Made by a program: the position numbers and the translations under genes. A stretch of 64,000 nt of DNA from a virus (lineage: Duplodnaviria > Heunggongvirae > Uroviricota > Caudoviricetes), in IMG/VR virus record IMGVR_UViG_3300046002_003930, positions 1-64,000 of that record. One strand, given 5' to 3'. A model generated the notes under the pieces. The model had not been told where the DNA came from, did not search any database, and saw only the letters and a list, made by a program, of their open reading frames with translations. This document shows positions 385 to 34,665 of the stretch, piece after piece (positions within the stretch are counted from its first letter, which is position 1; each line of letters starts with the position of its first letter).

Positions 385-460
385 GACAAACCCTAAGTCA
401 TTGATTTCATTGATGATTTGGGGCCCCTCCAAAAAAGCCTTATAAATCAAAGACTTATGC
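385..460. repeat. large imperfect palindromic element copy 1 (CTAAGTCATTGA...GGGGCCCC...TCAATGACTTAG-like)
   Basis: GGGGCCCC core at 420-427 flanked by inverted CTAAGTCATTGA / ATCAAAGACTTA arms; same architecture recurs 4 more times. Confidence 0.6.
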
Positions 461-528
461 AAGACAATCGTAGGGCGTATGTGGCGCCGATTTTACACCT
501 AAAACTCCCGCCTGTCAAGAGCGAGAAA

Positions 529-546
529 CATTACAAATTTGTAATG
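529..546. promoter_or_regulatory. 18-bp perfect palindrome CATTACAAATTTGTAATG (operator-like), copy 1
   Basis: Exact palindrome; second identical copy at 1697-1714, each just upstream of a gene start. Confidence 0.4.
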
Positions 547-612
547 AAGAAAATGCTTGCCTTTCTGCTAAATTGCGCGTATTATAATGAGACTGAAACA
601 AAGGAGGCCGAC

Positions 613-1131
613 ATGGGCCAAGGTTACGAAATCTTCAAAGCACGTTCCGCCAAGCAAGCCCCCATCGTCATTTTCGACCTTGACGGGACTGTGATTTGTT
701 CGCAACACCGCCACCTGTCCAAGCCGGACGGCTCGCTCGATCTAGCGCATTGGATTGAGAACTGCACCCCGGAAAAGATTTTCGCGGATAAGCTGCTGCC
801 GCTGGCTCGCTCGATGCGTGCGATGCACAAGGCCGGTCATCACGTCGTCATCTGCACGGCTCGCGTTATGAGCGAGCATGACCTCGCCTATCTGGCGAAT
901 AACGGCCTTCCGTATCACGGTCTGCTGTCGCGGGCTGAAGGTGATCGCCGCGCGGATGCGGAAATGAAGGTTTGCCTTCTTAATCGTTATTTGTTCAATC
1001 TGGGTTACGGCTCAATCCGTGAAGCAAACTGCATCATGTTTGATGATAACTTGGCCGTACTGGAAGCAATGCGCCAGCAAGGCGTTATCGTTATCAACGC
1101 CACTAACGAAAATGCACGGAGGGTTGCATGA
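613..1131 (+). CDS. HAD-superfamily phosphatase, T5 Dmp-like 5'-deoxyribonucleotidase
   Basis: RBS AAGGAGG then ATG 613; N-terminal FDLDGTV (HAD motif I DxDGT) and downstream HAD-like motifs; ORF-track start 418 is an upstream over-extension. Confidence 0.65.
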   Translation: MGQGYEIFKARSAKQAPIVIFDLDGTVICSQHRHLSKPDGSLDLAHWIENCTPEKIFADKLLPLARSMRAMHKAGHHVVICTARVMSEHDLAYLANNGLPYHGLLSRAEGDRRADAEMKVCLLNRYLFNLGYGSIREANCIMFDDNLAVLEAMRQQGVIVINATNENARRVA

Positions 1132-1319
1132 CGATTATTGCACCTCGCCCTGACTATACTTGGTCAGATGAAATGAGCGAGGCCGATAACGTCGGCCAGC
1201 TTATTCAAATCATGGACGAAACCGAAGATCGGTGGGGTGGTTACGTCTATGATTACTACTCTATGGCACATTGGGTGCTGACTTTTGTTAATGAAAATAC
1301 TTGGGAGGTAGGACCTTAA
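1128..1319 (+). CDS. hypothetical protein
   Basis: 63-aa ORF, start overlaps previous stop (ATGA). Confidence 0.45.
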   Translation: MTIIAPRPDYTWSDEMSEADNVGQLIQIMDETEDRWGGYVYDYYSMAHWVLTFVNENTWEVGP

Positions 1320-1577
1320 ATGCGTAAGATAATTTTTCAGGCCCACGCTGATACTGTGGGAACCGATACGGCGGAGATTGTTCTTTATCCCGACGATGTA
1401 AAGGACAAGGAACTTGATGACGATGTTCAACAGTTTGGGCAGAATCACTGGGATAGCTACGACTCTTCTGAAACTGAGGAAGAAAGCGACGAGTATTATG
1501 AAGCTTGCGATGCTTGGTGGGAAGATTACGACCCAGTAAAACACGCCGGACTGGTTGACGACCCGGACGAAGAATAG
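1320..1577 (+). CDS. highly acidic small protein (D/E-rich; DNA-mimic-like composition)
   Basis: 85 aa, very acidic with runs such as DDDVQQ and SSETEEESDEYYEACDAWWEDYD. Confidence 0.45.
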   Translation: MRKIIFQAHADTVGTDTAEIVLYPDDVKDKELDDDVQQFGQNHWDSYDSSETEEESDEYYEACDAWWEDYDPVKHAGLVDDPDEE

Positions 1578-1587
1578 TCGGATAAGC

Positions 1588-1650
1588 CCTTGAAATCGTT
1601 AGATTTTTGGGGCCCCCCGAAAATTCCCTTATAAATCAATGACTTAGCGG
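1588..1650. repeat. palindromic element copy 2 (GGGGCCCCCC core 1609-1618)
   Basis: TTTTGGGGCCCCCCGAAAA flanked by CTTATAAATCAATGACTTAG. Confidence 0.55.
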
Positions 1651-1696
1651 CTTTCCGCCTCTACACGAAAAACCTAGCCGAGTCAAGCCACGCAAA

Positions 1697-1714
1697 CATT
1701 ACAAATTTGTAATG
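1697..1714. promoter_or_regulatory. palindrome CATTACAAATTTGTAATG copy 2
   Basis: Identical to 529-546; about 90 nt upstream of the CDS starting at 1804. Confidence 0.4.
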
Positions 1715-1803
1715 AAAAACCTGTTGTGTTCTTCGGCCCGTTTCCCTATATTCAAGAGGTCGGGGGGATGGGCCTCCCGCGCAAAAGGAACTAAAGAAAC
1801 ATC

Positions 1804-2124
1804 ATGGCTAAACAAGCTGTCTCGAAATACACCGCCGCTATGGAACAAGCTATCCGTGACGAGCCGGTCCTGAACCAAGCCGTCGCCAATCGTCTGGCCG
1901 CGTCTTTCGGCCCGACCTTTACGGGTCGCATGGTCATCGCGAAAATTAACTCGATGAAACTGCCCTATCAGAAGAAGGTCGCCACCACCAAAACGGGTGA
2001 GCCGGTCGAACGCAAGGAACTTCTGGTTGCGGAGATCGCCAAGTTCGTCGAGGGTAACCTCGATGGTCTGGACAAGGCTCCGAAACCCGCTCTGCAAGCT
2101 ATCCGGGACGCCTTCGCGGCCTAA
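1804..2124 (+). CDS. small protein, paralog family member 1 (about 80 percent identical to 4231-4554)
   Basis: MAKQAVSKYTAAMEQAIRDEPVLNQAVANRLA... almost colinear with the product of 4231-4554; RBS AAAGGAAC upstream. Confidence 0.6.
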   Translation: MAKQAVSKYTAAMEQAIRDEPVLNQAVANRLAASFGPTFTGRMVIAKINSMKLPYQKKVATTKTGEPVERKELLVAEIAKFVEGNLDGLDKAPKPALQAIRDAFAA

Positions 2125-2351
2125 CGGATAGGGTTAACTATTGAGGGTGGGGCCGTCAGTAATGGCCGCTCTACTAATAAAGCGAGAATAGCCTTCTACA
2201 TGGGTCAGGTTCTCGCCACCCCGATAGTTACCACATGAACAGCGGCCCTCCCTCGCACTAAGGGAAACGTGGCTCTGTTGAATGCGCGATAGTGGGGTCG
2301 AACCCGCTCGCCGTTCTTGTGGTAACTATTCTCAAACAAAAAGGAACTAAA

Positions 2352-2699
2352 ATGCAACTTTCTCCCTCCACCATCTCGACCATCATCGCCGTTCTGTCCG
2401 CTCAAGGCGTCAACGTCACCGGCGATCAAGTCCGGTCGGCTCTGGCTTCACTGGTTGGCGAAACCCCGCCGCCCTCGCCGGTTAATCTGCAACCGGGCGA
2501 AAAGGTCATCGTTCAGAACCACGCCGACGGCGAAACCGAAACCTTCAGCACGATCGACGCGGCCCGCGAATACATCGTGGACAACTCGGAAACCGGCTAT
2601 AGCGGCCGCCTCCGCGACTCCTCGGACTTTTCGGCTTACATCGTTCGCCGGAAACTGAATGTCGAACTCGAACAGGCAACGACTGTCACGTTCGAATAA
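2352..2699 (+). CDS. hypothetical protein
   Basis: RBS AAAGGAAC then ATG 2352 (MQLSPSTIS...); the ORF-track start 2292 lies upstream of the RBS. Confidence 0.5.
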   Translation: MQLSPSTISTIIAVLSAQGVNVTGDQVRSALASLVGETPPPSPVNLQPGEKVIVQNHADGETETFSTIDAAREYIVDNSETGYSGRLRDSSDFSAYIVRRKLNVELEQATTVTFE

Positions 2700-2705
2700 T
2701 AAGGC

Positions 2706-2741
2706 TTGACCGTGGCTTTCGGGCCACGGTCTCCACTTTTG
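2706..2741 (+). terminator. stem-loop plus T-run after the 2352-2699 CDS
   Basis: CCGTGGC-TTTCG-GGCCACGG followed by TCTCCACTTTT. Confidence 0.4.
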
Positions 2742-2742
2742 G

Positions 2743-2822
2743 GCTTGACAATGCTAAGTCATTGAAAACGTTCAACTTTTGGAGCCCCTCGCTTTTTTCC
2801 TTATAAATCAAGGACTTACGCT
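2743..2822. repeat. palindromic element copy 3 (degenerate GGAGCCCC core 2781-2788)
   Basis: CTTGACAATGCTAAGTCATTGAAAACG...TTTTGGAGCCCCTCGC...CTTATAAATCAAGGACTTACG. Confidence 0.55.
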
Positions 2823-2832
2823 GTAACAATAC

Positions 2833-3291
2833 GTGACTAGCTTTCTTTCTCAAATGCGATATTATGGACCTATGAAAATCACTGCCTGCAACGAAACCTT
2901 TTACAATGCCGCCGTTTGGTATGCCAACGCGCTTGGTATCGCTGACCATGAGTTTGACCTAACCATTGATTACGCGGACAGCGTGGATATGGTTGGCGCG
3001 GCACAAATCCTTTATCATAAAGGTGTCGCGGTCATTACCATGAACACGACGCAAGATGAAAGCGACGACGAACTAGAACTGCTGGCGCATGAGATGGTGC
3101 ACCTGAAACAATATGTTACCGGACAAATGATTGACCTGCTGCTGACAGGGGTTGTCATTTGGGAAGGCACGGCCTATGATGCTTGCACTGACGCGAACTC
3201 GTGGGCCTACTGGAACGCCCCTTGGGAGTTGGAGGCTTTCAGCCGTCAACGTGGTCTTAACTGGATGAGGACTGTTAAAAATGTGGCTTGA
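2833..3291 (+). CDS. putative HExxH zinc metallopeptidase-like protein
   Basis: LLAHEMVHLKQY (HExxH); true start may be the internal MKITACN. Confidence 0.4.
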   Translation: MTSFLSQMRYYGPMKITACNETFYNAAVWYANALGIADHEFDLTIDYADSVDMVGAAQILYHKGVAVITMNTTQDESDDELELLAHEMVHLKQYVTGQMIDLLLTGVVIWEGTAYDACTDANSWAYWNAPWELEAFSRQRGLNWMRTVKNVA

Positions 3292-3487
3292 TTTTGTAGA
3301 AATGAGCTGGGATAACGATGGACAGGAGGGCCATTTTTCTTTTGGCATGACTATGGCCGATGCTCAAGAAATCGTGAACAAAGGTTCGCTTGAGGACCGC
3401 CATGCTGAAATCATCGTGGCAGCCGCTAAGTATTTGGCGGCGAAGGACGCTCCGTTTTTCCGTGATACTAACAAGGATGAAGACTAA
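3281..3487 (+). CDS. hypothetical protein
   Basis: 68-aa ORF overlapping previous stop. Confidence 0.4.
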   Translation: MWLDFVEMSWDNDGQEGHFSFGMTMADAQEIVNKGSLEDRHAEIIVAAAKYLAAKDAPFFRDTNKDED

Positions 3488-3654
3488 TGGAAGCGAATAC
3501 CTACCTTTTTACTGAGGAACAACTGAGAAAATACGCGGAAAACTGGTTTCTGCTCGCCTTGGATGACGTAGGCACGTTCGATGAACTGTGGGCGATGCAC
3601 GAACGTCAAAATAATACTTGACAGGGCGAAAGGGAGGGTCTAAAGAGGCCCTCC

Positions 3655-3725
3655 CGCTAAGTCCTTGAATTCATTGAACTTTTGGGGCCCCGCGGAAAAC
3701 CCCTTATATATCAAAGACATAGGTA
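3655..3725. repeat. palindromic element copy 4 (GGGGCCCC 3684-3691)
   Basis: GCTAAGTCCTTGAATTCATTGAACTTTTGGGGCCCCGCGG...CTTATATATCAAAGACAT. Confidence 0.55.
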
Positions 3726-3779
3726 CGGGGTTGGAAAATGCCAGCAAAAACAAACACTTAGCTAACCCATTGATATTGC

Positions 3780-3835
3780 TCACTTTTTTGCAGGGGCCCC
3801 AAAAAGCTAATGAAATCAAGGACTTATTTCAGCTC
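3780..3835. repeat. palindromic element copy 5 (TTTTTGCAGGGGCCCCAAAAAGC; core 3793-3800), plus a partial arm at 3868-3900
   Basis: Near-perfect inverted repeat TTTTTG-GGGGCCCC-AAAAA followed by ATCAAGGACTTAT. Confidence 0.5.
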
Positions 3836-3920
3836 TCCTGAACTTAATGTTAAACCTTAAGAGTTGGCGCTAAGTCATTGAAATCGTTCAGCTTTTCGGA
3901 AAAGTGCGCGCAGCGCCGAG

Positions 3921-4100
3921 TAGAGTGTCAAGTCAATTTTCAATTTTGCCGCGAATAAGTGCTTCTGCGCCGGGGCCAGTGCGAAGTCAAGTCCTATTTT
4001 AACGAGTGCCAAAATAAGTGCTGCGTTTTGCGCCGATTTTACAGTGCGAAAGCAATGGTGTCAAGATTACAAATTAGCAAGTGCTAAAACAATGCCGCTA
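3921..4100. repeat. three tandem ~58-bp direct repeats (AGTGCGAAGTCAAGTC...GCCAAAATAAGTGCTGCG...)
   Basis: Three consecutive units share GTCAAGTC-ATTTTAA-G-C-AAATAAGTGCT. Confidence 0.5.
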
Positions 4101-4230
4101 GCATGAGTCTCGGGCATCAAAACAACGCCTGCTGCGATTTTTCTTGATTTTCCCAGTCAAACCCCCTATTATTAGAAAGTCAAGAGGGCGAGGAATAGTC
4201 CCCGCCCCAGCAAAAAGGAAAACTACCACT

Positions 4231-4554
4231 ATGGCTAAGCAAGCTAAGACCTCGAAGTACACTGCCGCTATGGAGCAGGCCATCCGCGATGAGCCCGTTC
4301 TGAACCAAGCGGTTGCCAATCGTCTCGCCACCGAGTTCGGTGTTGAGTTCACCGGCCGCATGGTGATCGCGAAGATCAACTCGATGAAGCTGCCCTACGA
4401 GCGTAAGGCCGCGACGACCAAGGCCGGCACTCCGGTTGAGCGCAAGGACGCCCTGGTTACCGAGATTGCCAAGTTCGTTGAGGGCAACCTCGACGGCCTG
4501 GACAAGGCCCCTAAGGCTGCCCTGCAAGCCGTTCGCGACGCGCTGGCTGCCTAA
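4231..4554 (+). CDS. small protein, paralog family member 2
   Basis: RBS AAAAGGAAAAC then ATG 4231; MAKQAKTSKYTAAMEQAIRDEPVLNQAVANRLATEFG... paralog of 1804-2124. Confidence 0.6.
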   Translation: MAKQAKTSKYTAAMEQAIRDEPVLNQAVANRLATEFGVEFTGRMVIAKINSMKLPYERKAATTKAGTPVERKDALVTEIAKFVEGNLDGLDKAPKAALQAVRDALAA

Positions 4555-4584
4555 GCATCTTGGGACCGAAAGTTAAAAAAGTTC

Positions 4585-4613
4585 TTGACTTTCGGTCCCA
4601 CTCGCGCTATACT
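4585..4613 (+). promoter_or_regulatory. T5-type sigma70 promoter P1 (TTGACT-17-TATACT); -35 sits inside an 11-bp hairpin GGGACCGAAAG/CTTTCGGTCCC
   Basis: AAAAAAGTTCTTGACTTTCGGTCCCACTCGCGCTATACTT. Confidence 0.65.
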
Positions 4614-4736
4614 TATTAAAGATGAGGAAAACGAGGGGCCTTCAATGGTCTGAGTGTTTATACTAGACGAGCACGCTTTAGTAGTGGTCGAGTGGGCCTG
4701 AGGGAAGGATTGACCAGGTTTCCTTATTTTAGTTCT

Positions 4737-4765
4737 TGACTTTCGAGTCGAAGTTTAGTATTATA
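4737..4765 (+). promoter_or_regulatory. T5-type promoter P2 (TTGACT-17-TATTAT)
   Basis: TTTTAGTTCTTGACTTTCGAGTCGAAGTTTAGTATTATATAAG. Confidence 0.6.
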
Positions 4766-4845
4766 TAAGACTGAGACGGGCGCAGGCCCCACCGTGCTTC
4801 GGCAAAGATTGAAATAAGCATGTTTCAATGTCTCGAAAATAGTTC

Positions 4846-4874
4846 TTGACTTTGCAGTCAACTTGAACTATACT
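4846..4874 (+). promoter_or_regulatory. T5-type promoter P3 (TTGACT-17-TATACT)
   Basis: AAAATAGTTCTTGACTTTGCAGTCAACTTGAACTATACTTATT. Confidence 0.6.
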
Positions 4875-4983
4875 TATTAAAGATTGAGGCGGGCCCGACA
4901 CTAAGTCTGTTTTACACAAGTCTTTCCCCAGGTGGGTCTTCTTGAAAACAGCACTGGTCACCCGCGTAATCTGAAAAAAGTTC

Positions 4984-5012
4984 TTGACTTGTCCCGCTGA
5001 ATGCGGTATAAT
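4984..5012 (+). promoter_or_regulatory. T5-type promoter P4 (TTGACT-17-TATAAT)
   Basis: GAAAAAAGTTCTTGACTTGTCCCGCTGAATGCGGTATAATAGAG. Confidence 0.65.
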
Positions 5013-5029
5013 AGAGAAAGCCTCCCGGG

Positions 5030-6260
5030 CGGGCTGCCAATACACCGGGACCAATTTGTGGGGGAGGCAACGCAAGCTGCCCATCAGCGCGACCTCCCCC
5101 ATGTACGAAATTGTGGTACCTATGAAGCTAATTAGGTAAATGACCGTGAGCGGTCCCAGCCACTCCAAGTTTGCCGAAACTATACTAATCTACTTCGAGG
5201 TCAATGGGCAGGGAGGTCGTACGCCCTGTTTATGCGAGCATACATCGACCCTGGTAGAGACCATCCCGAATAGGTGTGCACAGCCTAGGTCGGCTCTGGT
5301 TCCATGATAGTAGGCAATTCAATAGGCTACGGCCTGCGGCACGGATTTACATGGACTGGAGCGCTTGCGCGACAGGACTAACACAATTTAAACATCTAGC
5401 TCGTGAGGCTAGACTGTCGTCGCGAAAATTTGAGACTAGCAGATGCGGAGGAGTCAAGCTGTGAGGCCGGTTGCAGGTGCGAGCAGGGACAGTTCAAGGA
5501 TCGCAGTGTCTACCCGAAAGCCTTGCAACGGTGAGTACGGAGGGGGAACTTGGAAGGGTGATCAACCAACCTTGGAGAACCTGTCTCAAACCGCTTTCTG
5601 ATGAGGCTGTAAGGCCGAAATGTGGAGTTGGCACGAAATTGAAAGAGGGACTTTGCCAGCCCTCACCACATAAAAGCGTGGAATAAGTTGTGGGTGCGCG
5701 TTCTGCGTTATTGAGTAACCCTCCGTCCTAAGGTTTAACGATTAAACCCAGTGGGTCGAAGTCATGAGCGACTTGCCGCGTTACTAGTGCGTGAAAATCT
5801 AGCTAGAAAGGCCAGTGTGCCCGACAAACTAGTGCGGTACTCCCGTCTGGAGTGTAGGTTGTGAGTTAGCCGAATGTAGAACTCTCCGTGTGGAACCCGC
5901 GTATGAGACCCCGGAAGATGGTGCCGTGCACATAGTGCTAAAACCTCGCGTGATTGCAGCTGCAATCAGACCAGAATAGTTCGCAGTAGTTTAGGTGCAA
6001 GTCCTAATGGTCAATTCGGCGCTAAAGGTACTTTAGCTTAATTGTACGAAACCAGGACGTACTGCCATTCAATCCGACCTGTGAAGGTCCGATTATAGGC
6101 TGGGTCTTTAGGAACAAGTTCCTAAAGTTAGAGTATACCAGAGCGCAACACGGGCACGTCCTGGAGTTGGTCTGCGAAAACCTTATTAAGGACAACCATA
6201 ACCGGAACCGAGCTGCGGCTCGCCGGAGGCGGCTTTTATACCGCTCAGAACAAGGGTTTC
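5030..6260 (+). other. about 1.2-kb ORF-free, GC-richer tract downstream of the four tandem promoters (candidate long non-coding transcript or decayed gene)
   Basis: No ORF longer than 71 aa in any frame. Local GC looks near 50 percent, against a visibly AT-richer flanking genome. Contains GC-rich hairpins such as GGGGGAGG...CCTCCCCC and ends at two intrinsic terminators. Confidence 0.3.
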
Positions 6261-6290
6261 ACCCGCTGACCGAGGTCAGCGGGTTTTTTC
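6261..6290 (+). terminator. rho-independent terminator
   Basis: ACCCGCTGACC-GAG-GTCAGCGGGT followed by TTTTTTC. Confidence 0.7.
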
Positions 6291-6370
6291 GGCAGAAAAC
6301 TAACCCGAGTGGAGGATAGGAGCGATCCATCTGATAGTAATGATCGGGAGCGGCCGCGAGAACATGTTTT

Positions 6371-6402
6371 AGCAGGATAGTTGCAACTATCCTGCTTTTT
6401 TG
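6371..6402 (+). terminator. rho-independent terminator
   Basis: AGCAGGATAGTTGCAACTATCCTGCT followed by TTTTTTG. Confidence 0.7.
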
Positions 6403-6697
6403 TGTCCATTTCATTTAATTTGGGTCAGCCCCTCCCCACCCTGGTATAATAGCACAGCTTTTGAAGCGGGTCAAGATTATAAATTCGCGAGAGCTGAATT
6501 TTCTGCGCCGAGCAGTAGTAAGTCAACAACTGTTTTACCGCGTGTTGAAGATGATTTGGGAAAACTTGGGAAAACTTGGGTTAAGCGGGTTTCGGCCGAC
6601 TTATTTCGAGCTGTGCACCGTGATTTGAAATAAATGCGCCGAAATTGCTTGAGTCGCCCAATAACACCGTGAAAATCGACTCAGGTGAATACTTATC

Positions 6698-6726
6698 TTG
6701 ACTTTGATGTTTGGGTAATCTATACT
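6698..6726 (+). promoter_or_regulatory. T5-type promoter (TTGACT-17-TATACT) for the gene block starting at 6749
   Basis: ACTTATCTTGACTTTGATGTTTGGGTAATCTATACTTTAG. Confidence 0.6.
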
Positions 6727-6748
6727 TTAGACTGAATCGGAGAGAAAA

Positions 6749-6988
6749 ATGCGAGAACCTACACAACAAGAGATTTGGGAGTGCGAAGATCGCTTCAGTA
6801 TGGCAAATGATGTGGCTGATGTAGATATTTCCTTAATTGACTATACGGAAACAGGCTGGAAAGTTGATATTCACTATAACATTATCGAAGATAATGAAAT
6901 TGTGGACACTGTGCTTCTGGGCGGGTTTCTGTGGCTAGACATAGCTGAAGATGAGTTCCATCTCAACACTGACGGGAAGGTTTACTAA
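6749..6988 (+). CDS. hypothetical protein
   Basis: RBS GGAGAGAAAA then ATG; 79 aa. Confidence 0.5.
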   Translation: MREPTQQEIWECEDRFSMANDVADVDISLIDYTETGWKVDIHYNIIEDNEIVDTVLLGGFLWLDIAEDEFHLNTDGKVY

Positions 6989-7170
6989 TGTTTGAAGTAA
7001 TTTGGATGCCCTCGGGAGAAGTTCATAGTAATCACTCTACTGAAGAAGCTGCCCGTAACTACATCGAAAACAACTTTAGCATGATTACTCGTCAGTATTA
7101 TGGCGTGCGCTTGTGTGAAGACCGCTGGCCCGAATATGAATCAGTTATGGAAATGGAGAAGTATCAGTGA
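6988..7170 (+). CDS. hypothetical protein
   Basis: ATG overlaps previous stop (TAATG). Confidence 0.45.
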   Translation: MFEVIWMPSGEVHSNHSTEEAARNYIENNFSMITRQYYGVRLCEDRWPEYESVMEMEKYQ

Positions 7171-7394
7171 TTCGGATTAGTATGATGGCCGTACCTCAGG
7201 GTATCGGTATACTGCGCTTTGATATTCTCGCTGGTCAGATTTGGACCTCTGACTGTGGCAACTTCCACTGTTACTGCCTGGAAATGGCGGACGAGACTAT
7301 TCATCAAGGTCAGTTCGTGAAGACCTTTAGCGCACACAAGAACCCTTTCCGCATTCTAGCAAAAATTTATGAGGATATTCAGAATGGAACATGA
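7167..7394 (+). CDS. hypothetical protein
   Basis: 75-aa ORF, overlapping start. Confidence 0.4.
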   Translation: MIRISMMAVPQGIGILRFDILAGQIWTSDCGNFHCYCLEMADETIHQGQFVKTFSAHKNPFRILAKIYEDIQNGT

Positions 7395-7617
7395 AATCGA
7401 CGAATACTACGACACGTATGGGCGTGAGTACGGAAGCTATTTCACTGACGAGATTGATCTCATGTACTGCCATTCGCAGTATGAAATCATGTTGGCTGGA
7501 GGAATTGTGCCCGAAGAGGCTCTGATTGCTATCAAAGTTATGATGCAGGGTGCTGCCGATCAAGCTGAGTGGAATATGGTCAACGGCTATGACGACGAAG
7601 ATGGAGAAGATTATTGA
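7369..7617 (+). CDS. hypothetical acidic protein
   Basis: 82-aa ORF. Confidence 0.4.
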   Translation: MRIFRMEHEIDEYYDTYGREYGSYFTDEIDLMYCHSQYEIMLAGGIVPEEALIAIKVMMQGAADQAEWNMVNGYDDEDGEDY

Positions 7618-7931
7618 TTAAGCCTATTTCACCGGACAATATCGCCAGTGCTAAGGCGGATATCTTTCCAGATTATGTAATTGAATCTGTAAACGAGCTA
7701 ATTGCAGCCAATTTCAGTGCTGGGAGCGCTAACTTCACACAGGACGAAGTAATTGACGCGATTATGTCAAAAGCTGGTGACCTTACTAGAGCATTTATCT
7801 TCTCTAAGGGTTATCTCAACTTCGAGGAACTCTACGAGGCTCAGGGCTGGAAAGTAGTTTACGATAAGCCGGCCTATAACGAAAGTTATAAGGCCAACTT
7901 CACATTTATTAAACCTCCAAGAGGTTGTTAA
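7614..7931 (+). CDS. hypothetical protein
   Basis: 105-aa ORF, start overlaps previous stop. Confidence 0.45.
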   Translation: MIKPISPDNIASAKADIFPDYVIESVNELIAANFSAGSANFTQDEVIDAIMSKAGDLTRAFIFSKGYLNFEELYEAQGWKVVYDKPAYNESYKANFTFIKPPRGC

Positions 7932-8097
7932 TGTTCGACGAAACTGGAAGCACTTGGCGTATCATTGATACGAAGTATAAAGAAGATATTCAAGGCGGCT
8001 TTAAGACTGAGTTTGCCGCTCTTGAGTTCGTACTGAAACACTTGGGCGCGTCAGACGCTCAGTTTATTATTCGCAACTATGGAGTGTATAACCGCTA

Positions 8098-8667
8098 ATG
8101 TTTGAATTCAAGATTGATAACGCACACGCTGCATATAAGCTAATGCAGGATGGCTGGCCAACGAAGATCGTAAGTCTCGTTGGCCCAGACATTAACTTCG
8201 AGCTGCCTGAGCAAGGCGACCATCACATCATCCGAGTTTTCCATGATTTCGAGGGTCCAGTTGACCCAGCTACGCTTGCTGGCACGACTTGGGACCTGAA
8301 AGGTCACGATGTTATTCTGCCAACAAAAGACATGGTCTTTGATGTTCTGCAGCACTGCTGGGACCTTAAAGAGGGTGATCGTCTACTTATTCACTGTCAT
8401 GCAGGGCGCAGCCGAAGTGCTGCAATGCTCATTGGCATTATCTTTGACCATATGCGCGGCAATAGCATCGAAGATGCTCGACGTGCGCTAAAGATGGTTG
8501 AGAAGGTGCGACCTACAATGATTCCTAACCGTCTCATGATTGAGATGATGGATGAGATTATGTGCAACTCGGAGAATCAGCTCCAGGTTGTTGTTAAGGA
8601 ATATTGGGATTCGTATGTCGGTGCTGATAAGGACCTGCGTACTAAATATAGCGGATGGAAAGCATGA
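8098..8667 (+). CDS. CX5R protein tyrosine/dual-specificity phosphatase-like protein
   Basis: LLIHCHAGRSRSAAMLIG matches the HCxxGxxRS phosphatase P-loop. Confidence 0.6.
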   Translation: MFEFKIDNAHAAYKLMQDGWPTKIVSLVGPDINFELPEQGDHHIIRVFHDFEGPVDPATLAGTTWDLKGHDVILPTKDMVFDVLQHCWDLKEGDRLLIHCHAGRSRSAAMLIGIIFDHMRGNSIEDARRALKMVEKVRPTMIPNRLMIEMMDEIMCNSENQLQVVVKEYWDSYVGADKDLRTKYSGWKA

Positions 8668-20872: not shown

Positions 20873-21718
20873 TTGAAACAACGCAGCAACCCACTTTCTT
20901 GGATTACAGTAGACGACGCAGAACTCTCGGTTGATAAGTTCCCGGATGGTTCGTTCCGATTTACTATCAGTAACATCAATACCGTCTATTCTAGCATTGT
21001 TGGGCCTAGATTTAATGTAACACTTAAAAGCACCTTGCCGGAAGCGCTACATGCCTGTTTCCAAGTGTGTAGTGCACTGCTTGATAGCTTTAATACTTGC
21101 TATATTGCTCTTACAGTTCAAACCTTCCCAGACCAACGTGCTGATCGCTCAGAAAAGCCCGGTATGGCTATTCCGGCAATCGCTACATGCACATTTCTGG
21201 CTGCTATGCCCGTAGATGAAATCGTTATTTTCGATATTCACAATAAGTCTGTTCTGGAAGCACTTAAAATTGGCTGCAAATATAACGAAATTAAAGTCCG
21301 CCATGTGGAGCCGCTTGATTGTTTAATTGAGGCTTTAAAGCTTGATGATCTTGACCCTGCAACATCAATCGACTATGTTGTAGCAGTTGATAAAGGTGCG
21401 GTTCATCGTGCTGAAACGGTTGCAGAGTACTATGGCGCTGAAGTCATTTACTGCGATAAAAAGCGTGTTGATGGTAAAATTATCGGGCACGAAATTGTAG
21501 CTCAACCAGACGGGCCTATGGCCGGAAAAAACATCTGGGTTGTGGATGACCTGTGCGACGGTGGTGCTACCTTTATTAGTGTTGCCAAGTTGTTGCGCGA
21601 ACATTACAACTTTCACGATCTAAATCTTTACGTAACTCATGGACTGTTCTCCAAAGGCAAGGAAGAACTGTTCCAACACTATACCACTATCCTTGCCCTT
21701 TTCGATTATGGAGCCTAA
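20873..21718 (+). CDS. ribose-phosphate pyrophosphokinase-like / phosphoribosyltransferase-domain protein
   Basis: Promoter-in-hairpin GCCCTTGACTTTTGCCGGTCAAGGGCCTATACT upstream; PRPP-binding motif VVDDLCDGGAT. Confidence 0.6.
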   Translation: MKQRSNPLSWITVDDAELSVDKFPDGSFRFTISNINTVYSSIVGPRFNVTLKSTLPEALHACFQVCSALLDSFNTCYIALTVQTFPDQRADRSEKPGMAIPAIATCTFLAAMPVDEIVIFDIHNKSVLEALKIGCKYNEIKVRHVEPLDCLIEALKLDDLDPATSIDYVVAVDKGAVHRAETVAEYYGAEVIYCDKKRVDGKIIGHEIVAQPDGPMAGKNIWVVDDLCDGGATFISVAKLLREHYNFHDLNLYVTHGLFSKGKEELFQHYTTILALFDYGA

Positions 21719-23216
21719 CTTGAACTATTCTGTCCCCGCTATTTTCGCTACCGATGCTTACAAACTGAGCCATTCGGAAATGTACCCTGAGGGTATGGAG
21801 CTGCTGTTCTCCACTTGGGTTCCTCGCTCGGACCGCCTTGCTAGGACGACTTCGCGTCAACTCGACGGCGATAACTCTGTCGTGTTCTTTGGCATCACGC
21901 AAACCATGAATAAGATGGAAAGCATCTTTGGTGAGTGGTTTGACCGCGACACTGAAGAAGTTGTGGATGAATACATCGACTTTATCAAGCTGTTCCTTAA
22001 AGTTACGCCAAATGCGCTGCAAGTTGAACGCATTCGTGACCTGCATGAACTTGGTTATCTGCCGATTAAAGTCTTGTATCTTCCGGAAGGCACAGTCACC
22101 AAAACCGGCGTCTGCCAAGCTGTAATTTTCAATACTCTGCCAGAGTTCGCGTGGGTTACTAACTATCTGGAAACTCTCTTCTCCACTCTGCAGTGGAATG
22201 CGCAAACCGTCGCGTCTATCGCACGGAACTACCGCAAGCTGTGTGACGAGTTTGCTGAACTCACTTGCGAAAACAACCTGCACGTTGACTGGCAGTGCCA
22301 CGACTTCTCTATGCGCGGTCTTTCCTCGCTAGAGACTTCGTCGACTGCTCAGCTGGGCCACCTGCTGTATTTCAACGGTACGGACACGCTGCCGACACTG
22401 TTCGAAGGTCAGAAGCTGTATGAAGATTTCGATATCGCCACCTTTGGCTCGGTACCAGCTTCGGAACACAGCGTTATGTGTGCGCACGGTGAAATGTCGG
22501 AAACGGATACTTTCCGTCACATCATGAATGCATTCCCCGTGGGCATTGCTTCTATCGTGTCTGATACGTGGGATTTCTGGAAAGTTCTGACGGTAACTCT
22601 GCCAGAACTCAAAGACGAAATCATGCAGCGCGATGGCAAGATTGTTATTCGTCCGGACAGTGGAGACCCGGTTGACATCATCTGCGGTGACGCAAATGCT
22701 GAGTGGGGCTCTCCTGCTTCGCAGGGCGCAATCCAACTTCTGTGGAATGTGTTTGGCGGCACTGTGAACGCCAAGGGCTACAAAGTTCTTGACCAACACA
22801 TTGGCCTGATCTATGGTGACTCGATCACTCTTGATCGTGCTAAGCGCATCTTTGAACGCCTTGCCGCGAATGGCTTTGCTTCGTCAAACGTTGTTCTTGG
22901 TGTTGGTTCGTTCACGTATCAATGCAACACGCGTGACACTTATGGCTTCGCCATGAAAGCCACTGGTGCCATTGTTAACGGTGAAGAACGCGCACTGTTC
23001 AAAGACCCGGTCACTGATGACGGCACTAAGACGTCCTTCAAGGGCTTCCTTAGCACTCGTTATGATGAAGTGCGCGACGAGTACTACACTGTTGATCGTC
23101 TGACTTTCGACGAAGCCGTGTTTGACCCGGAAAGCGCGTTCATTGAGCACGACTTCGAGTTTGTCAGCAATACTGCAAACTCATGGGAAGAGGTGCGCTG
23201 GCTTGCACGCCAGTAA
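21708..23216 (+). CDS. nadV: nicotinamide phosphoribosyltransferase (NadV/NAMPT-like)
   Basis: About 500 aa; IVIRPDSGDPVDII matches the NAMPT RPDSGDP signature; start overlaps the PRPP-synthetase stop. Confidence 0.6.
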   Translation: MEPNLNYSVPAIFATDAYKLSHSEMYPEGMELLFSTWVPRSDRLARTTSRQLDGDNSVVFFGITQTMNKMESIFGEWFDRDTEEVVDEYIDFIKLFLKVTPNALQVERIRDLHELGYLPIKVLYLPEGTVTKTGVCQAVIFNTLPEFAWVTNYLETLFSTLQWNAQTVASIARNYRKLCDEFAELTCENNLHVDWQCHDFSMRGLSSLETSSTAQLGHLLYFNGTDTLPTLFEGQKLYEDFDIATFGSVPASEHSVMCAHGEMSETDTFRHIMNAFPVGIASIVSDTWDFWKVLTVTLPELKDEIMQRDGKIVIRPDSGDPVDIICGDANAEWGSPASQGAIQLLWNVFGGTVNAKGYKVLDQHIGLIYGDSITLDRAKRIFERLAANGFASSNVVLGVGSFTYQCNTRDTYGFAMKATGAIVNGEERALFKDPVTDDGTKTSFKGFLSTRYDEVRDEYYTVDRLTFDEAVFDPESAFIEHDFEFVSNTANSWEEVRWLARQ

Positions 23217-27133: not shown

Positions 27134-27338
27134 TATGGAATCGCCGCTTGACCCTAAGGTCGCCCATCAGATTAAGATGGCAGCAAAAGAAATGCTGCGA
27201 GCTCGACGCTATGAAACGGAGTATAATCCGATTTTGTATATTCCAGCAAATCTGAGCGCAAACCATCCAGATAGTGGTATGTCAATGGCAGACCACGAAA
27301 AGGAAAAAGAAGCAAGGAAAACCCAAAAAAGTTCTTGA
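27134..27338 (+). CDS. hypothetical protein
   Basis: RBS CAGGAGCG then ATG 27134; stop TGA lies inside the -35 TTGACT of the next promoter. Confidence 0.4.
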
Positions 27339-27363
27339 CTTTTTGGGCAGATCTTGCTATTAT
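27335..27363 (+). promoter_or_regulatory. T5-type promoter (TTGACT-17-TATTAT) driving the tmRNA locus
   Basis: AAAAAAGTTCTTGACTTTTTGGGCAGATCTTGCTATTATAAGAG. Confidence 0.65.
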
Positions 27364-27369
27364 AAGAGA

Positions 27370-27760
27370 TAGTCGTAGACGACTGATAAAGGCGTAAAAG
27401 ACGCGAGTTCGACTCTCGCCGCCTCCACCATAAGTCCATCCTAGAGCAGTTCGCGACCTTGCAGGGACAAGATAGCTCGAAAAGATGAAGTCCTGGCTCC
27501 TGCAAGAGTCGAAGCATATCTCCCTGTGGTAAGGGACGGATTCGTTTGGGGCGACGTTCGCTGGCATGGGCCGGTGTAGTGTAAGTATCTGGGTGGCTTT
27601 ATGATGGGGGCGACATGGCATTCGATTTTACGAGAAATAAACAGTAAGAGACTAGTGACTGGCAAAGTGCCATTTTAAATGCAAACGATAATGTTGCGTT
27701 TGAAGATTTCCGCGTAGCGGCTTAATCTTCTTGGGTCCGCGGGTACCTCGAAACAGAAAC
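27370..27760 (+). ncRNA. ssrA: circularly permuted (two-piece-type) tmRNA (ssrA). Acceptor piece about 27370-27430 ends in T-arm/acceptor/CCA; coding piece starts GGGGGCG at 27606; tag ORF 27681-27725 encodes ANDNVAFEDFRVAA-stop
   Basis: T-arm GCGAG-TTCGACT-CTCGC then CGCCTCC-A-CCA (27403-27430). Downstream GGGGGCGACAUGGCAUUCGAUUUUACG resembles the tmRNA 5' end GGGGCUG...GGAUUCGAC. P1 pairing GGGGGCG/CGCCUCC and P2 pairing UUUUACG(27626-32)/CGUAAAA(27393-99). Tag reading frame GCA AAC GAT AAT ... GTA GCG GCT TAA. Confidence 0.7.
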
Positions 27761-27783
27761 CCGTACTTAATTTTAGAGGAAAT

Positions 27784-27936
27784 ATGAAATACTCAATCGG
27801 TTACAGAAACGCCAAAGGGCACTTAGTTTGCGAACTTTTCCCTGACTGGCCCTCGACATTCAAGCGTCTTGAAGGGCTTGATCATTTAAGTAAGACGGTC
27901 TTCGAAATCGTCCAAGGAGAAGATGAACCTATTAGC
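27784..27936 (+). CDS. hypothetical small protein
   Basis: RBS AGAGGAAAT then ATG; 50 aa; stop overlaps start of the spanin gene. Confidence 0.4.
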
Positions 27937-32595: not shown

Positions 32596-32670
32596 GCCCA
32601 AATAGCTCAGCGGAAGAGCGCCTCCTTTACACGGAGGATGTCGGGGGTTCGATCCCCTCTTTGGGTACCA
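32596..32670 (+). tRNA. tRNA-Val (anticodon TAC), CCA encoded
   Basis: Acceptor GCCCAAA/TTTGGGT, D-arm GCTCAGCGGAAGAGC, anticodon loop TTTACAC, T-arm GGGGG-TTCGATC-CCCTC; preceded by promoter 32500-32530 and a 12-bp hairpin. Confidence 0.75.
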
Positions 32671-32674
32671 TTTT

Positions 32675-32749
32675 AGTCCTGTAGCTCAACGGAAGAGCGC
32701 CACATTGACATTGTGGAGGTCGCCGGTTCGACACCTGCCAGGACTACCA
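32675..32749 (+). tRNA. tRNA-Val (anticodon GAC)
   Basis: Acceptor AGTCCTG/CAGGACT, anticodon stem CCACA/TGTGG loop TTGACAT, CCA encoded. Confidence 0.65.
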
Positions 32750-32750
32750 T

Positions 32751-32824
32751 GCTTCCTTAGCTAAGTGGTATAGCAGGCGACTGATAATCGCCAGTCACAA
32801 GTTCGATTCTTGTAGGAAGTACCA
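32751..32824 (+). tRNA. tRNA-Ile (anticodon GAT)
   Basis: Acceptor GCTTCCT/AGGAAGT, anticodon stem GGCGA/TCGCC loop CTGATAA, T-arm ACAAG-TTCGATT-CTTGT. Confidence 0.75.
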
Positions 32825-32961
32825 ATAATTCGCCCGTAGTGCATGCAACTACCGGCTAAGAACACGGATGACCTCTTCGGCAGACGAGGGGTAGTGCAAG
32901 TGGGCGGTCGCCCCGCACTTCTATTTCGGGGTAAAAGTCCTCATAGTCTGTCGACAATTTT

Positions 32962-33046
32962 TGCAGGATAGCCTAATGGTAAGGCAACGGTTTTTGGTGC
33001 CGTCAGCGAAAGCTAACTCTAGGTTCGAGTCCTAGTCCTGCATCCA
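32962..33046 (+). tRNA. tRNA with long variable arm, anticodon loop TTTTGGT (TTG, Gln-like but class-II shape)
   Basis: Acceptor TGCAGGA/TCCTGCA, T-arm CTAGG-TTCGAGT-CCTAG, CCA encoded; identity uncertain. Confidence 0.5.
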
Positions 33047-33047
33047 C

Positions 33048-33135
33048 GGAAGGTAGCGCTCAGGTGAGCAAACTGGTCTTGAAAACCAGGCCAAGGTGAT
33101 GAGTCTTGAGGTTTCGATTACTTTACCTTCCTCCA
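33048..33135 (+). tRNA. tRNA-Ser (anticodon TGA), class II
   Basis: Acceptor GGAAGGT/ACCTTCC, anticodon stem CTGGT/ACCAG loop CTTGAAA, long variable arm, CCA encoded. Confidence 0.65.
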
Positions 33136-33139
33136 TTTC

Positions 33140-33211
33140 CGTTAGTGCGCTGGGACGCAGCTGAGGCTCATATCTTCGGCGTGGGTGGTTCAATTCCACC
33201 ACTAACGACCA
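33140..33211 (+). tRNA. tRNA-Met or Ile2 (anticodon CAT)
   Basis: Acceptor CGTTAGT/ACTAACG, loop CTCATAT, T-arm GGTGG-TTCAATT-CCACC, CCA encoded. Confidence 0.6.
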
Positions 33212-33275
33212 TCTTAAAAAGTTCTTGACTTTTTGCCTCAAACATCGTATTCTATACTTATAGAAGGAGATTAAA

Positions 33276-33719: not shown

Positions 33720-33757
33720 TCCTTGACTTTTATCTCATTTCAGAGTATTATATAAAA

Positions 33758-33958: not shown

Positions 33959-33959
33959 T

Positions 33960-34036: not shown

Positions 34037-34038
34037 TT

Positions 34039-34656: not shown

Positions 34657-34665
34657 ATACATTAT

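Follow-up and report, generated by a model that had tools for sequence, protein, structure and literature searches.

We propose that positions 4585-6401 of the window, the 64,000-nt stretch of IMG/VR record IMGVR_UViG_3300046002_003930 analysed here, are very probably a conserved locus from which an uncultivated T5-like phage makes a long structured non-coding RNA, a reading that comes from comparative sequence analysis. In 14 other metagenomic contigs of T5-like phages the same place is taken by a promoter array followed by a gene-free tract of 0.73-1.9 kb, ten helices covary, and coding signal is absent from the tract. These observations favor a long structured non-coding RNA among the explanations offered in the original prediction. 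The features that we assign to the locus are collected in Table 1.

Table 1. Features of the locus in window coordinates; paired percentages come from trimmed helix alignments and are biased upward
Feature	Position	Strand	Details
Promoter P1	4585..4613	+	TTGACT-17-TATACT; AAAAAAGTTC just upstream; counterpart in all relatives
Inter-promoter unit 1	4620..4735	+	116 nt; family X: AGATGAGG...CAGGTTTCCTTATTT
Promoter P2	4736..4764	+	TTGACT-17-TATTAT
Inter-promoter unit 2	4771..4845	+	75 nt; three hairpins closed by GAGAC...GTCTC
Promoter P3	4846..4874	+	TTGACT-17-TATACT
Inter-promoter unit 3	4881..4983	+	103 nt; family Y: AGATTGAGGCGGGCC...CCCGCGTAATCT
Promoter P4	4984..5012	+	TTGACT-17-TATAAT, 11/12; predicted start ~5019
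Predicted 5' cleavage product	5019..5672	+	~654 nt; from P4 and the predicted cleavage site
Long hairpin	5060..5101	+	GGGGGAGG...GCTG[CCCAT]CAGC...CCTCCCCC; conserved in clade A
Hairpin a	5324..5335	+	AGGC[TACG]GCCT; 100% paired; 2/4 pairs changed on both sides
Long-range helix b	5336..5423	+	GCGGCAC 5336-5342 / GT(C)GTCGC 5416-5423; C5418 bulged
Hairpin c	5395..5413	+	TCTAGC[TCGTGAG]GCTAGA; conserved loop; 100% paired; 5/6 pairs changed on both sides
Helix d	5430..5589	+	TTGAGAC 5430-5436 / GTCTCAA 5583-5589; closes variable region
Site i hairpin	5550..5569	+	TTGG[AAGGGTGATCAA]CCAA; loop with self-complementary TGATCA
Type I hammerhead ribozyme (predicted)	5592..5678	+	core and three covarying stems, mid-tract
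Hammerhead stem I	5592-5597 / 5673-5678	+	CGCTTT / AAAGCG
Hammerhead core	5598-5604; 5617-5620	+	CTGATGA; GAAA
Hammerhead stem II	5605-5616	+	GGCT[GTAA]GGCC
Hammerhead stem III	5621-5625 / 5666-5670	+	TGTGG / CCACA; 40-nt interior
Hammerhead U16.1; H17	5671; A5672	+	
Predicted self-cleavage site	5672..5673	+	between A5672 and A5673, from hammerhead geometry
Predicted 3' cleavage product	5673..6290	+	~618 nt to terminator 1; ~729 nt with read-through to terminator 2
H-type pseudoknot	5676..5723	+	5' end of predicted 3' product
Pseudoknot helix i	5676-5682 / 5702-5708	+	GCGTGGA / TCTGCGT; 100% paired in 15 sequences; 3 pairs changed on both sides
Pseudoknot helix S2	5690-5695 / 5718-5723	+	GTGGGT / ACCCTC; 89% paired
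Hairpin e	5753..5774	+	GGGTCG[AAGTCATGAG]CGACTT; 4/6 pairs changed on both sides
Hairpin f	5777..5793	+	CGCG[TTACTAGTG]CGTG
Hairpin g	5911..5927	+	CCGG[AAGATGGTG]CCGT; conserved loop; one pair C-G, A-U, U-A
Intrinsic terminator 1	6261..6290	+	
Module between terminators	6291..6370	+	86-93% identical in L057, L063, L064; missing from most others
Intrinsic terminator 2	6371..6401	+	terminator at this position in all relatives

The transcription unit and its relatives

The original prediction described four tandem consensus promoters, an ORF-free, GC-richer tract and two closing terminators, and all of these elements are borne out. A consensus scan confirmed the promoters at 4585, 4736, 4846 and 4984, each of which matches 10-11 of 12 consensus positions and shares an upstream AAAAAGTTCTTGAC context with the other three; promoter-like sites in 3500-8000 number 11, against 5.3 +/- 1.7 in shuffles. 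In all 15 relatives the promoter nearest the tract has a -10 hexamer that is close to perfect (TATAAT, or TACAAT in L063 and L070), and we infer that in the window this promoter, P4, drives transcription of the long RNA. At the other end, the two best terminator-like sites in the scan are the stems at 6261-6284 and 6371-6396, both with a T run after them. The hairpin sequence of the second, with GTTGCAAC at its apex, is common to the window and six relatives (L003, L057, L059, L063, L064 and L066).

Within the tract, the longest ORF is 71 aa on the + strand (5471-5686) and 67 aa on the - strand; the - strand also has a TTG-start ORF of 135 aa (4761-5168), which covers the first 150 nt of the tract and overlaps the promoter array. 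The GC content is 52.4% compared with 44.5% for the window, at the 98th percentile of equal-sized windows, and the 4.5 kb upstream of the tract is also fairly GC-rich (50.5%). The gene upstream of the locus ends at 4554, and the next gene downstream starts at 6749 with its own promoter. The tract lies ~4 kb downstream of a dmp-like gene. A comparison with 50,697 GenBank phages by blastn in distant mode, and by megablast of 25 kb, returned no similarity relevant to the tract.

Relatives were recruited through the downstream phosphatase gene (11 contigs), through an RNA motif (four contigs) and from IMG/VR (L003), and 14 of the recruited contigs are separate members of the family whose tract is complete. 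The members all have two to four tandem promoters of the TTGACN-17-TATAMT type followed by a gene-free tract, with predicted transcripts of 728-1875 nt, and their neighboring genes encode T5 terminase and T5 dNMPase Pfam domains. Conservation in the tract takes the form of blocks separated by variable inserts, and the 3' third of the window's tract (~5960-6260) is common to only a few relatives. Other routes to relatives yielded little: a genome collection of 185,579 species contained no copy, the exact 16-mer CCGGAAGATGGTGCCG occurred at 52 IMG/VR loci that were all chance matches in coding DNA except the L003 contig, and other motif scans gave only chance matches or none (the spacer of one pattern was unsuited to clade B). 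Aligning the window with L003 globally in MAFFT, as a pair, gave no useful information. Two further protein anchors were discarded, since an upstream 107-aa protein led to L001 and L002, which carry the paralogue at 1804-2124 and not the tract, and the protein at 7614-7931 led only to a distant, non-informative locus.

The predicted ribozyme and covarying helices

Midway along the tract is a candidate hammerhead ribozyme, whose core positions C3 U4 G5 A6 N7 G8 A9, G12 A13 A14 and A15.1-U16.1 are invariant in 15 sequences and whose H17 is A or C, never G. In its stems, 94.6% of pair cells are standard and 10 of 16 pairs have changed on both sides, although the 15 sequences form two clades (A and B), such that many of the changes represent few independent events. 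The covariation score of 0.605 compares with 0.222 in shuffles, none of 500 shuffles reaches it, and slid registers are only 28-51% paired; pair 10.1-11.1 is U.U in five sequences. We propose that the long transcript is cleaved by this hammerhead at 5672/5673.

Standard models recognize the ribozyme incompletely. The window copy matches Rfam Hammerhead_3 only partially (5586-5620; 17.9 bits, E 2.4, gathering 48.5), and hammerhead models did not score at Rfam gathering in 10 relatives. These sub-threshold scores are likely due to large insertions in stem III, whose interior measures 34-89 nt in native members. The minimum-free-energy fold of 5586-5684 alone contains no hammerhead, and its stability is ordinary (z -0.40). 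In L003, insertion of an ORF destroys the native hammerhead, and a compact, complete hammerhead is present instead (33.1 bits against HH9, E 8e-6, threshold 52). This replacement is predicted to restore cleavage, with the position in the 3' RNA unchanged.

Covariation is found in 10 helices in total, the three hammerhead stems and seven others. Five of the non-hammerhead helices are jointly 96.5% paired with 14 of 27 pairs changed on both sides, and the pseudoknot overall is 95.1% paired, values that are biased upward because the helix alignments are trimmed constructs with hand-chosen registers, bulges removed and variable interiors cut. For the same five helices, 0 of 500 shuffles reach the observed score and slid registers are 27-38% paired. 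Helix b, which encloses a variable hairpin and hairpin c, is 100% paired in its trimmed alignment, with a C-G to U-A exchange and one pair that appears as G.U, A-U and G-C. Helix d was identified by eye only, its near-invariant sequence leaving it without a formal covariation count. The perfect stem noted in the original prediction, GGGGGAGG/CCTCCCCC, was located at 5060-5067 / 5094-5101. Single-sequence folding of the whole tract was not discriminating for either strand, and from a gap-stripped core alignment RNAalifold retrieved some of the helices but not all. G.U pairs are frequent (GU:10 at one helix b pair, UG:11 in helix i), which fits an RNA of the + strand and does not fit a DNA structure or an RNA of the - strand.

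The pseudoknot at the start of the predicted 3' product overlaps the predicted ribozyme. GCG 5676-5678 belongs both to helix i and to hammerhead stem I, and stem I nucleotide 1.5 (C or U) covaries with both of its alternative partners. The sharing of three nucleotides by these two structures suggests a release switch.

Several hairpin loops are palindromic. At site i clade A has GATC as the internal tetranucleotide and clade B has GGCC, and at site ii, the loop of hairpin e, TCATGA in 14 sequences is replaced by TAATTA in L061; at both sites a self-complementary motif is thus replaced only by other self-complementary motifs, each switch being essentially one evolutionary event. Site iii, the loop of hairpin f, reads ACTAGT, or TCTAGA in clade B, a pattern explicable within a single hairpin. 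Replacement of palindrome by palindrome supported intermolecular kissing loops in OLE and GOLLD (PMC12286853), and by analogy the two palindromic loops may hint at symmetric kissing-loop homodimers or oligomers.

Proposed mechanism and competing explanations

We propose that the four tandem early-type sigma-70 promoters would fire in one direction, and that P4 would transcribe a highly structured RNA of ~1.27 kb, or ~1.38 kb with read-through of terminator 1. The hammerhead would then cut this transcript into a ~654-nt 5' RNA, which would end in a 2',3'-cyclic phosphate and keep the ribozyme core at its 3' end, and a ~620-nt 3' RNA with a 5'-OH. Before cleavage, the first nucleotides of the 3' RNA would form a strand of hammerhead stem I. 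After cleavage, they would refold with a segment ~25 nt downstream into the pseudoknot (helix i and S2) that can form in all relatives, and this switch would release the 3' RNA and make cleavage irreversible. Both products would display invariant-loop hairpins on covarying stems, with the palindromic loops permitting kissing-loop oligomers. Our best guess, by analogy with GOLLD and ROOL, is that the RNA may form an abundant assembly early on that takes part in host takeover or anti-defence. It is also possible, and we advance this only tentatively, that the locus represents a new class of self-maturing giant phage RNA made from the strongest promoters at the start of a T5-type infection, in which a hammerhead cut and pseudoknot release would be followed by symmetric homo-oligomerization of one or both halves through palindromic kissing loops into an RNA-only assembly like those of GOLLD and ROOL, with tRNA-like cargo or anti-defence decoys in some phages.

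The transcription unit could instead be a string of independent small RNA modules, such as sRNAs and tRNA-like decoys, that the hammerhead, RNase P or RNase Z at tRNA-like elements, and the terminators merely separate. We regard this as unlikely. The 3' half is indeed a mosaic of modules found in some relatives only, with tRNA-like modules embedded in that half of L057, L063, L067 and L070, and terminators 1 and 2 have an extra module between them. The three inter-promoter units are likewise separate small structured modules, in each of which the 5' end is predicted by folding to pair with the 3' end around internal hairpins; unit 1 has homologues in L003, L057, L059, L063, L064, L067, L069 and L072, and unit 3 has near-identical copies in L063, L064, L067 and L072. 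To that extent the cluster of small RNAs envisaged in the original prediction survives in the conserved inter-promoter modules, whereas the long transcript downstream of them would be divided into two pieces by the hammerhead, an element that the original prediction did not mention. Against a string of modules, long-range helices join distant segments of the tract (b across 80 nt, d across ~150 nt, and the pseudoknot), the conserved core elements keep the same fixed order in 15 of 15 sequences, and ARAGORN finds no tRNA in the window's own tract, which likewise lacks a tRNA-like element.

It is very unlikely that the tract is a selfish mobile insertion with a ribozyme, or what is left of one (a hammerhead with a homing-endonuclease cassette, or an intron-like element) without function for the phage. 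Hammerheads are common in selfish elements (PMC3088659), L003 has a T5orf172/DUF4379-like, homing-endonuclease-like ORF inside the RNA gene adjoining the hammerhead, and L065 and L060 have ORFs within the promoter array. The ORF is nevertheless missing in 13 of 15 tracts, and the tract has its own strong promoter, its terminators and a fixed genomic position. Its conserved core is under purifying selection with compensatory changes. Group I and II intron cores, a search proposed in the original prediction, gave no match in Rfam; the flanks are not exon-like, and no target gene is interrupted.

It is highly improbable that the tract acts as DNA in the T5 first-step-transfer region, for example as an injection stop signal, an origin or an array of protein-binding sites, and is no RNA gene. 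The left terminal repeat of T5 holds a ~1-kb non-coding injection stop signal, and the position of the tract relative to the dmp-like gene is compatible with such a role. However, the tract contains no internal repeat array, is bracketed by promoter and terminators, and has an invariant hammerhead core, and its retained G.U wobbles would turn into A.C mismatches on the opposite strand or in a DNA structure. If a signal at the DNA level is sought, the separate 65-nt GGGGCCCC repeat family that lies upstream (393-3896) is a better candidate.

Finally, a decayed or frameshifted A1-like protein gene, which synteny with T5 suggested because a large pre-early gene would be placed near dmp, can be rejected with near certainty: T5 A1 has no tblastn match in the tract, substitutions there lack 3-periodicity (p 0.56-0.66, versus 1e-8 to 0.018 in flanking genes), the indels that separate relatives mostly have lengths not divisible by three, and gene calls from independent pipelines leave the tract equally ORF-free in 14 relatives. 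A gene read in a non-standard code is ruled out as well, since TAA, TAG and TGA each occur 12-25 times in all six frames.

Comparison with known RNAs and elements

Apart from the sub-threshold hammerhead, Rfam 15 contains no family that matches the locus in the window or its relatives, at gathering thresholds or at E<=10, and the ROOL, OLE, HEARO and raiA models give chance-level matches at most. The GOLLD model (RF02032) has no match in 4400-6800 at E up to 10. A genuine GOLLD is found elsewhere in the window (43998-44448, 171.8 bits), and the RNA proposed here would therefore be a second, different large RNA in one phage. The same genome also encodes a two-piece tmRNA, ~29 tRNAs and a Ro60-like protein. 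The tmRNA type points to a host among the alphaproteobacteria, or in another lineage whose tmRNA is two-piece.

To our knowledge, only GOLLD, ROOL, OLE and a small number of other non-coding RNAs from bacteria or phages are longer than 600 nt and have a conserved, elaborate structure. The locus very probably adds a new family beyond Rfam 15, in which the combination of a ribozyme and a refolding switch, both predicted, is unmatched in other giant RNAs, and it does so in a setting of pre-early-type genes and a consensus promoter array. What purpose would a hammerhead serve in a non-coding RNA, and do giant phage RNAs in general assemble themselves by means of palindromic loops? The locus also raises the question of whether T5-like phages use structured RNAs, besides proteins, in the first minutes of infection.

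The candidate ribozyme resembles members of Rfam clan CL00010 in its full CUGANGA...GAAA...UH core, its three stems and its type I arrangement, in which the ends exit via stem I, and the window and seven other members have a GNRA-type stem II loop (GUAA or GCAA). Unlike hammerheads between genes, in repeats or in viroids, the window copy sits midway in a non-coding RNA of >1 kb, and the 3' strand of its stem I also serves as a strand of the conserved pseudoknot. Hammerheads are also found in phage and prophage transcripts, as a triple set around ardA in Agrobacterium and at intergenic sites in PaP3 and Bcep176 (PMC3088659). There, as predicted here, a hammerhead cuts a phage transcript into defined pieces, but those pieces are mRNAs, whereas both pieces of the present transcript would be non-coding structured RNAs.

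The T5 injection stop signal (NC_005859 9140-10149) is likewise large and non-coding and lies in the left-end region of a T5-type genome. It acts as DNA and consists of repeats and palindromes, whereas the present tract is a repeat-free, promoter-to-terminator unit with RNA-type covariation. Similar in general character are GOLLD and ROOL, which form RNA-only nanocages (PMC12286853). Like them, the RNA proposed here is encoded by a phage, is very large and has an elaborate structure that comprises a conserved core and variable parts, with embedded tRNA or tRNA-like sequences in some members and with hairpin loops in which one palindrome replaces another. In contrast to GOLLD and ROOL, it adjoins pre-early-type genes instead of a tRNA island, and it has a predicted self-cleaving ribozyme that probably yields two RNAs.

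The promoter array and the gene-free tract

All of the elements named in the original prediction are found where it placed them. A consensus scan recovers four plus-strand promoters of the sigma-70 type, each with the AAAAAGTTCTTGAC context upstream, and counts 11 promoter-like sites in the scanned region against 5.3 expected. Because promoters of this type otherwise occur every ~2–3 kb in the window, for example ahead of the tmRNA gene, the four within 430 bp form a true cluster. The tract downstream has no ORF longer than 71 aa on either strand, contains TAA, TAG and TGA in all six frames, and has a GC content of 52.4% versus 44.5% for the window (98th percentile among equal-sized windows). 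It also carries the perfect stem GGGGGAGG/CCTCCCCC, and the two terminators are the top two terminator-like sites of the region.

Homologous loci could not be collected with the 107-aa upstream gene, which reached only the locus of its paralogue; the usable anchor was the phosphatase gene 1.7 kb downstream of the tract. This anchor led to one IMG/VR contig, L003, and, through 23 protein homologues and their encoding contigs, to eleven further loci. An RNA-derived pattern, AGTCATGAGC-N5-GCCNCGTTNCTAGNGCGTG, added four metagenome contigs and had no match in 185,579 reference genomes. The resulting set of 15 sequences, which fall into clades A (with the window) and B, excludes L071, a near-duplicate of contig L057, and L062, which has a run of Ns. 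In all 15, a ~107-aa gene or the contig end precedes the locus, 2–4 tandem promoters of the window's type follow, the last with a near-perfect −10 hexamer (TATAAT; TACAAT in L063 and L070), and an intrinsic terminator closes a gene-free tract. The predicted transcript, from last promoter to last terminator, spans 728 nt (L058) to 1610 nt, and 1875 nt in L003 with its inserted ORF.

The short units between promoters sort into families common to both clades, and end-to-end pairing is predicted to close each one. In relatives, some of these units are taken up by ORFs or long inserts (L065 6260-6904, L060 ~7000-7400, L058 7660-7860, L061 6520-6660), so the array looks like an insertion hotspot; the L065 ORF has faint matches to DUF4379 and CapR. 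Just past the last terminator lies a block, GCCCCTCCCCACCCTGGTATAAT, that contains an extended −10-like TGGTATAAT and is kept in most of 15 relatives, with a divergent version in L058, L062, L065, L067 and L072. The ~240 non-coding nt that follow contain GCGCCGA boxes in multiple copies as well as a repeat, GTCAAGATTAYAAATT, with a second copy at 4060; these repeats bear minus-strand promoter-like sites (6474-6446 and 4064-4036).

Features of the locus and its surroundings (window coordinates unless a contig is named)
Feature	Position	Strand	Details
65-nt intergenic repeats	393-457, 1582-1646, 2754-2818, 3657-3721, 3762-3826 (inverted), 3869-3896
HAD/dNMPase-like protein	418-1131
Paralogous 106/107-aa proteins	1804-2124, 4231-4554	+	no family match
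Promoters	4585 / 4736 / 4846 / 4984	+	TTGACT, 17-nt spacer, TATACT / TATTAT / TATACT / TATAAT
Tract	5019-6292
Conserved blocks	5044-5100, 5320-5345, 5384-5440, 5584-5620, 5664-5700, 5744-5800, 5884-5960
Perfect stem	5060-5067 / 5094-5101
Hairpin a	5324-5335	+
Helix b	5336-5342 with 5416-5423	+
Hairpin c	5395-5413	+
Site i (5′ product)	5550-5569		UUGG[AAGGGUGAUCAA]CCAA; internal GAUC in window/clade A, GGCC in clade B (UUUGGCCA)
Stem I 5′ strand	5592-5597	+	CGCUUU
Hammerhead core	5598-5604	+	CUGAUGA
Stem II	5605-5616	+	GGCU-GUAA-GGCC
Hammerhead GAAA	5617-5620	+
Stem III	5621-5625 / 5666-5670	+	UGUGG ... CCACA, 40-nt interior
U A before predicted cut	5671-5672	+
Stem I 3′ strand	5673-5678	+	AAAGCG
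Pseudoknot helix i	5676-5682 with 5702-5708	+	GCGUGGA with UCUGCGU; clade B GUGUGUA with UGCACAC
Pseudoknot helix S2	5690-5695 with 5718-5723	+	GUGGGU with ACCCUC; clade B CCGGGU with GCCCGG
Hairpin e	5753-5774	+
Site ii (hairpin e)	5759-5768		UCAUGA in 14 sequences, UAAUUA in L061
Site iii (hairpin f)	~5781-5789		ACUAGU clade A, UCUAGA clade B
Hairpin g	5911-5927	+
Terminators	6261-6290, 6371-6401
GCCCCTCCCCACCCTGGTATAAT block	6428-6455
Non-coding stretch	6456-6697
Phosphatase gene	8098-8667
Permuted (two-piece) tmRNA	27338-27816	+	tag peptide ANDNVAFEDFRVAA; Rfam tmRNA_permuted and alpha_tmRNA match
29 tRNA genes	32596-47030	+
491-aa protein	38966-40441	+	DUF2828 and DUF7788/VWA domains; PHROG 850 'RNA-binding protein'
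GOLLD RNA	43998-44448	+	embedded tRNA-Leu(tag) 44061-44137; Rfam RF02032, 171.8 bits, E 1.6e-46
tRNA-like elements	L057 7600-7671; L063 3904-3978; L067 3636-3710
tRNA-like elements, L070	~1490-1520, 1900-2110		reverse-complement orientation

The embedded hammerhead and neighboring structures

The Rfam check proposed in the original prediction gave a split answer: the whole RNA has no family match in Rfam 15, whereas a hammerhead match, below the score threshold, appears at 5586-5620 (Hammerhead_3, 17.9 bits, E 2.4). Because of this weak match and a stronger one in L003 (HH9, 33 bits, E 8e-6), the region was examined closely. Both ends exit via stem I, which makes the hammerhead type I, and the cut is predicted directly 3′ of A5672. 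The hammerhead occurs in 15/15 sequences with an invariant core. On trimmed constructs, in which a linker stands for the stem III interior and one extra U is dropped in two sequences, standard pairs fill 94.6% of pair cells, and in 10 of the 16 pairs both partners have changed. None of 500 shuffles reached the observed covariation score of 0.605 (shuffled, 0.222 ± 0.028), and sliding the 3′ partners by 1–3 columns lowers pairing to 28–51%. Sequence and structure show the hallmarks that define the family, and catalysis is predicted from them; within the hammerhead class, this ribozyme is new and atypical.

Helices a, b, c, e and g, tested jointly, are paired in 96.5% of cells (slid registers 27–38%; 0/500 shuffles), and both partners have changed in 14 of their 27 pairs; here and below, registers, bulge removals and trimming were picked by hand, which biases towards pairing, and the two clades imply few independent changes. 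Several hairpins bear invariant loops (UCGURAG, AAGUCAUGAG, AAGAUGGUG) atop freely covarying stems. RNAalifold, applied to the first ~280 nt past the cut, pairs the 5′ end of the 3′ product with a segment ~25 nt downstream, and extraction from all 15 sequences yields an H-type pseudoknot. Its helix i is 100% paired (n=15), three pairs having changed on both sides, and the pseudoknot overall is 95.1% paired versus 19–55% when slid. GCG 5676-5678 is common to helix i and the outer three pairs of stem I, and stem I position 1.5 (C/U) covaries with both alternative partners; this overlap would fit a switch.

Self-complementary hexamers occupy three hairpin loops (sites i–iii). At sites i and ii, within-loop pairing would leave a 2-nt loop and is sterically excluded, which, along with double changes that preserve the palindrome, points to pairing between two RNA copies. 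In essence, each palindrome switch reflects a single event in evolution, and a structure within one hairpin can explain site iii; possible oligomerization of the RNA is a lead, not a finding.

Readings of the locus

We consider it probable that the locus is a gene for a structured RNA whose hammerhead looks functional. The original option of a long structured non-coding RNA is thereby favored, with transcription, cleavage and oligomerization still predicted. We propose that a ~1.3-kb RNA would be transcribed from early promoters and would cut itself at 5672|5673, giving two structured RNAs of ~0.6 kb. Stem I would form, the ribozyme would cleave, and the pseudoknot would then capture the new 5′ end; this switch would free the 3′ RNA, and conserved loops on both RNAs could be available to partners or for self-association.

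That the tract is a string of independent small modules strikes us as unlikely. In its favor, the 3′ halves of the relatives' RNAs are mosaic and embed tRNA-like elements, several of them with 'anticodons' of 2 or 4 nt and one of them a regular tRNA-Lys(UUU); against it, the window's tract holds no such module. In L070, a T-arm-like element lies directly 5′ of the hammerhead.

A selfish ribozyme/endonuclease element appears highly improbable. Evidence for it comes from L003, where a minus-strand 209-aa ORF (1126-1755) with weak Pfam matches to a DUF4379 zinc finger and MUG113/T5orf172 breaks the native hammerhead after stem II (affected stretch 1087-1867). Immediately 3′ of the inserted ORF, however, lies a second hammerhead, compact and complete (1820-1867), that reuses the 3′ strand of the original stem I, and the 3′ product would therefore start at the unchanged nucleotide; this speaks for the RNA-gene reading and suggests selection on where exactly the 3′ RNA begins. 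The left junction of the insertion duplicates CCCGACTGTGCCACGAAATTT, a segment from further upstream in the RNA.

Even less credible is a DNA-level signal resembling the injection stop signal of T5, with whose annotation the tract was compared: G.U pairs are common across the tested helices, which marks the plus strand as the RNA strand and disfavors DNA-level structure. Finally, the tract was rejected as a protein gene, and the proposed decayed A1-like gene deserves almost no credence: conservation comes in blocks separated by variable inserts, substitutions that separate the window from its closest relatives are even across the three phases (p 0.56–0.66) whereas in flanking genes they are, as expected, in excess at third positions (p 1e-8 to 0.018), indels are mostly not multiples of three, and T5 A1 has no tblastn match in the tract.

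Genomic setting and known giant RNAs

No DNA relative of the window was found among 50,697 GenBank phages. Matches to its replication proteins come from T5-type families (DNA polymerase A, ~45% identity to Demerecviridae homologues), it encodes DnaB and SbcC, and Pfam T5_Terminase_small and Phage_T5_dNMPase are present on related contigs. Nicotinamide phosphoribosyltransferase and an apparently split NAD-dependent DNA ligase, whose BRCT-containing portion forms an ORF apart from the adenylation/OB part, are also encoded (21639-23216, 48513-49436, 50850-51647). The 106/107-aa paralogues number 2 or 3 in relatives, one always directly 5′ of the promoter array. The 65-nt repeats (core GGGGCCCC, pattern CTAAGTCATTGA...GGGGCCCC...AATCAAGGACTTA), also found in the paralogue-locus contigs L001 and L002, could serve the pre-early region either as a signal at the DNA level or as a terminator working in both directions.

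The tmRNA is preceded by a AAAAAGTTCTTGACT promoter of its own at 27331. Within the tRNA island, several tRNAs are unusually long (tRNA-Ile(tat), 95 nt; tRNA-Gln and tRNA-Lys(ttt), 85 nt) and small ORFs are scattered between the genes. The gene for the 491-aa protein lies mid-island, and its domain architecture is one that we take to resemble Ro60 (TROVE + vWA). GOLLD sits in this island as well; it is genuine, and the phage therefore has two different giant non-coding RNAs.

Our literature search found no paper describing the tract RNA. Like GOLLD and ROOL, it is a large, ornate RNA carried by phages that has palindromic loops and includes members associated with tRNAs. It differs from them in sequence, structure and genomic position, in holding an embedded ribozyme, and in sharing its genome with a GOLLD as a second giant RNA.
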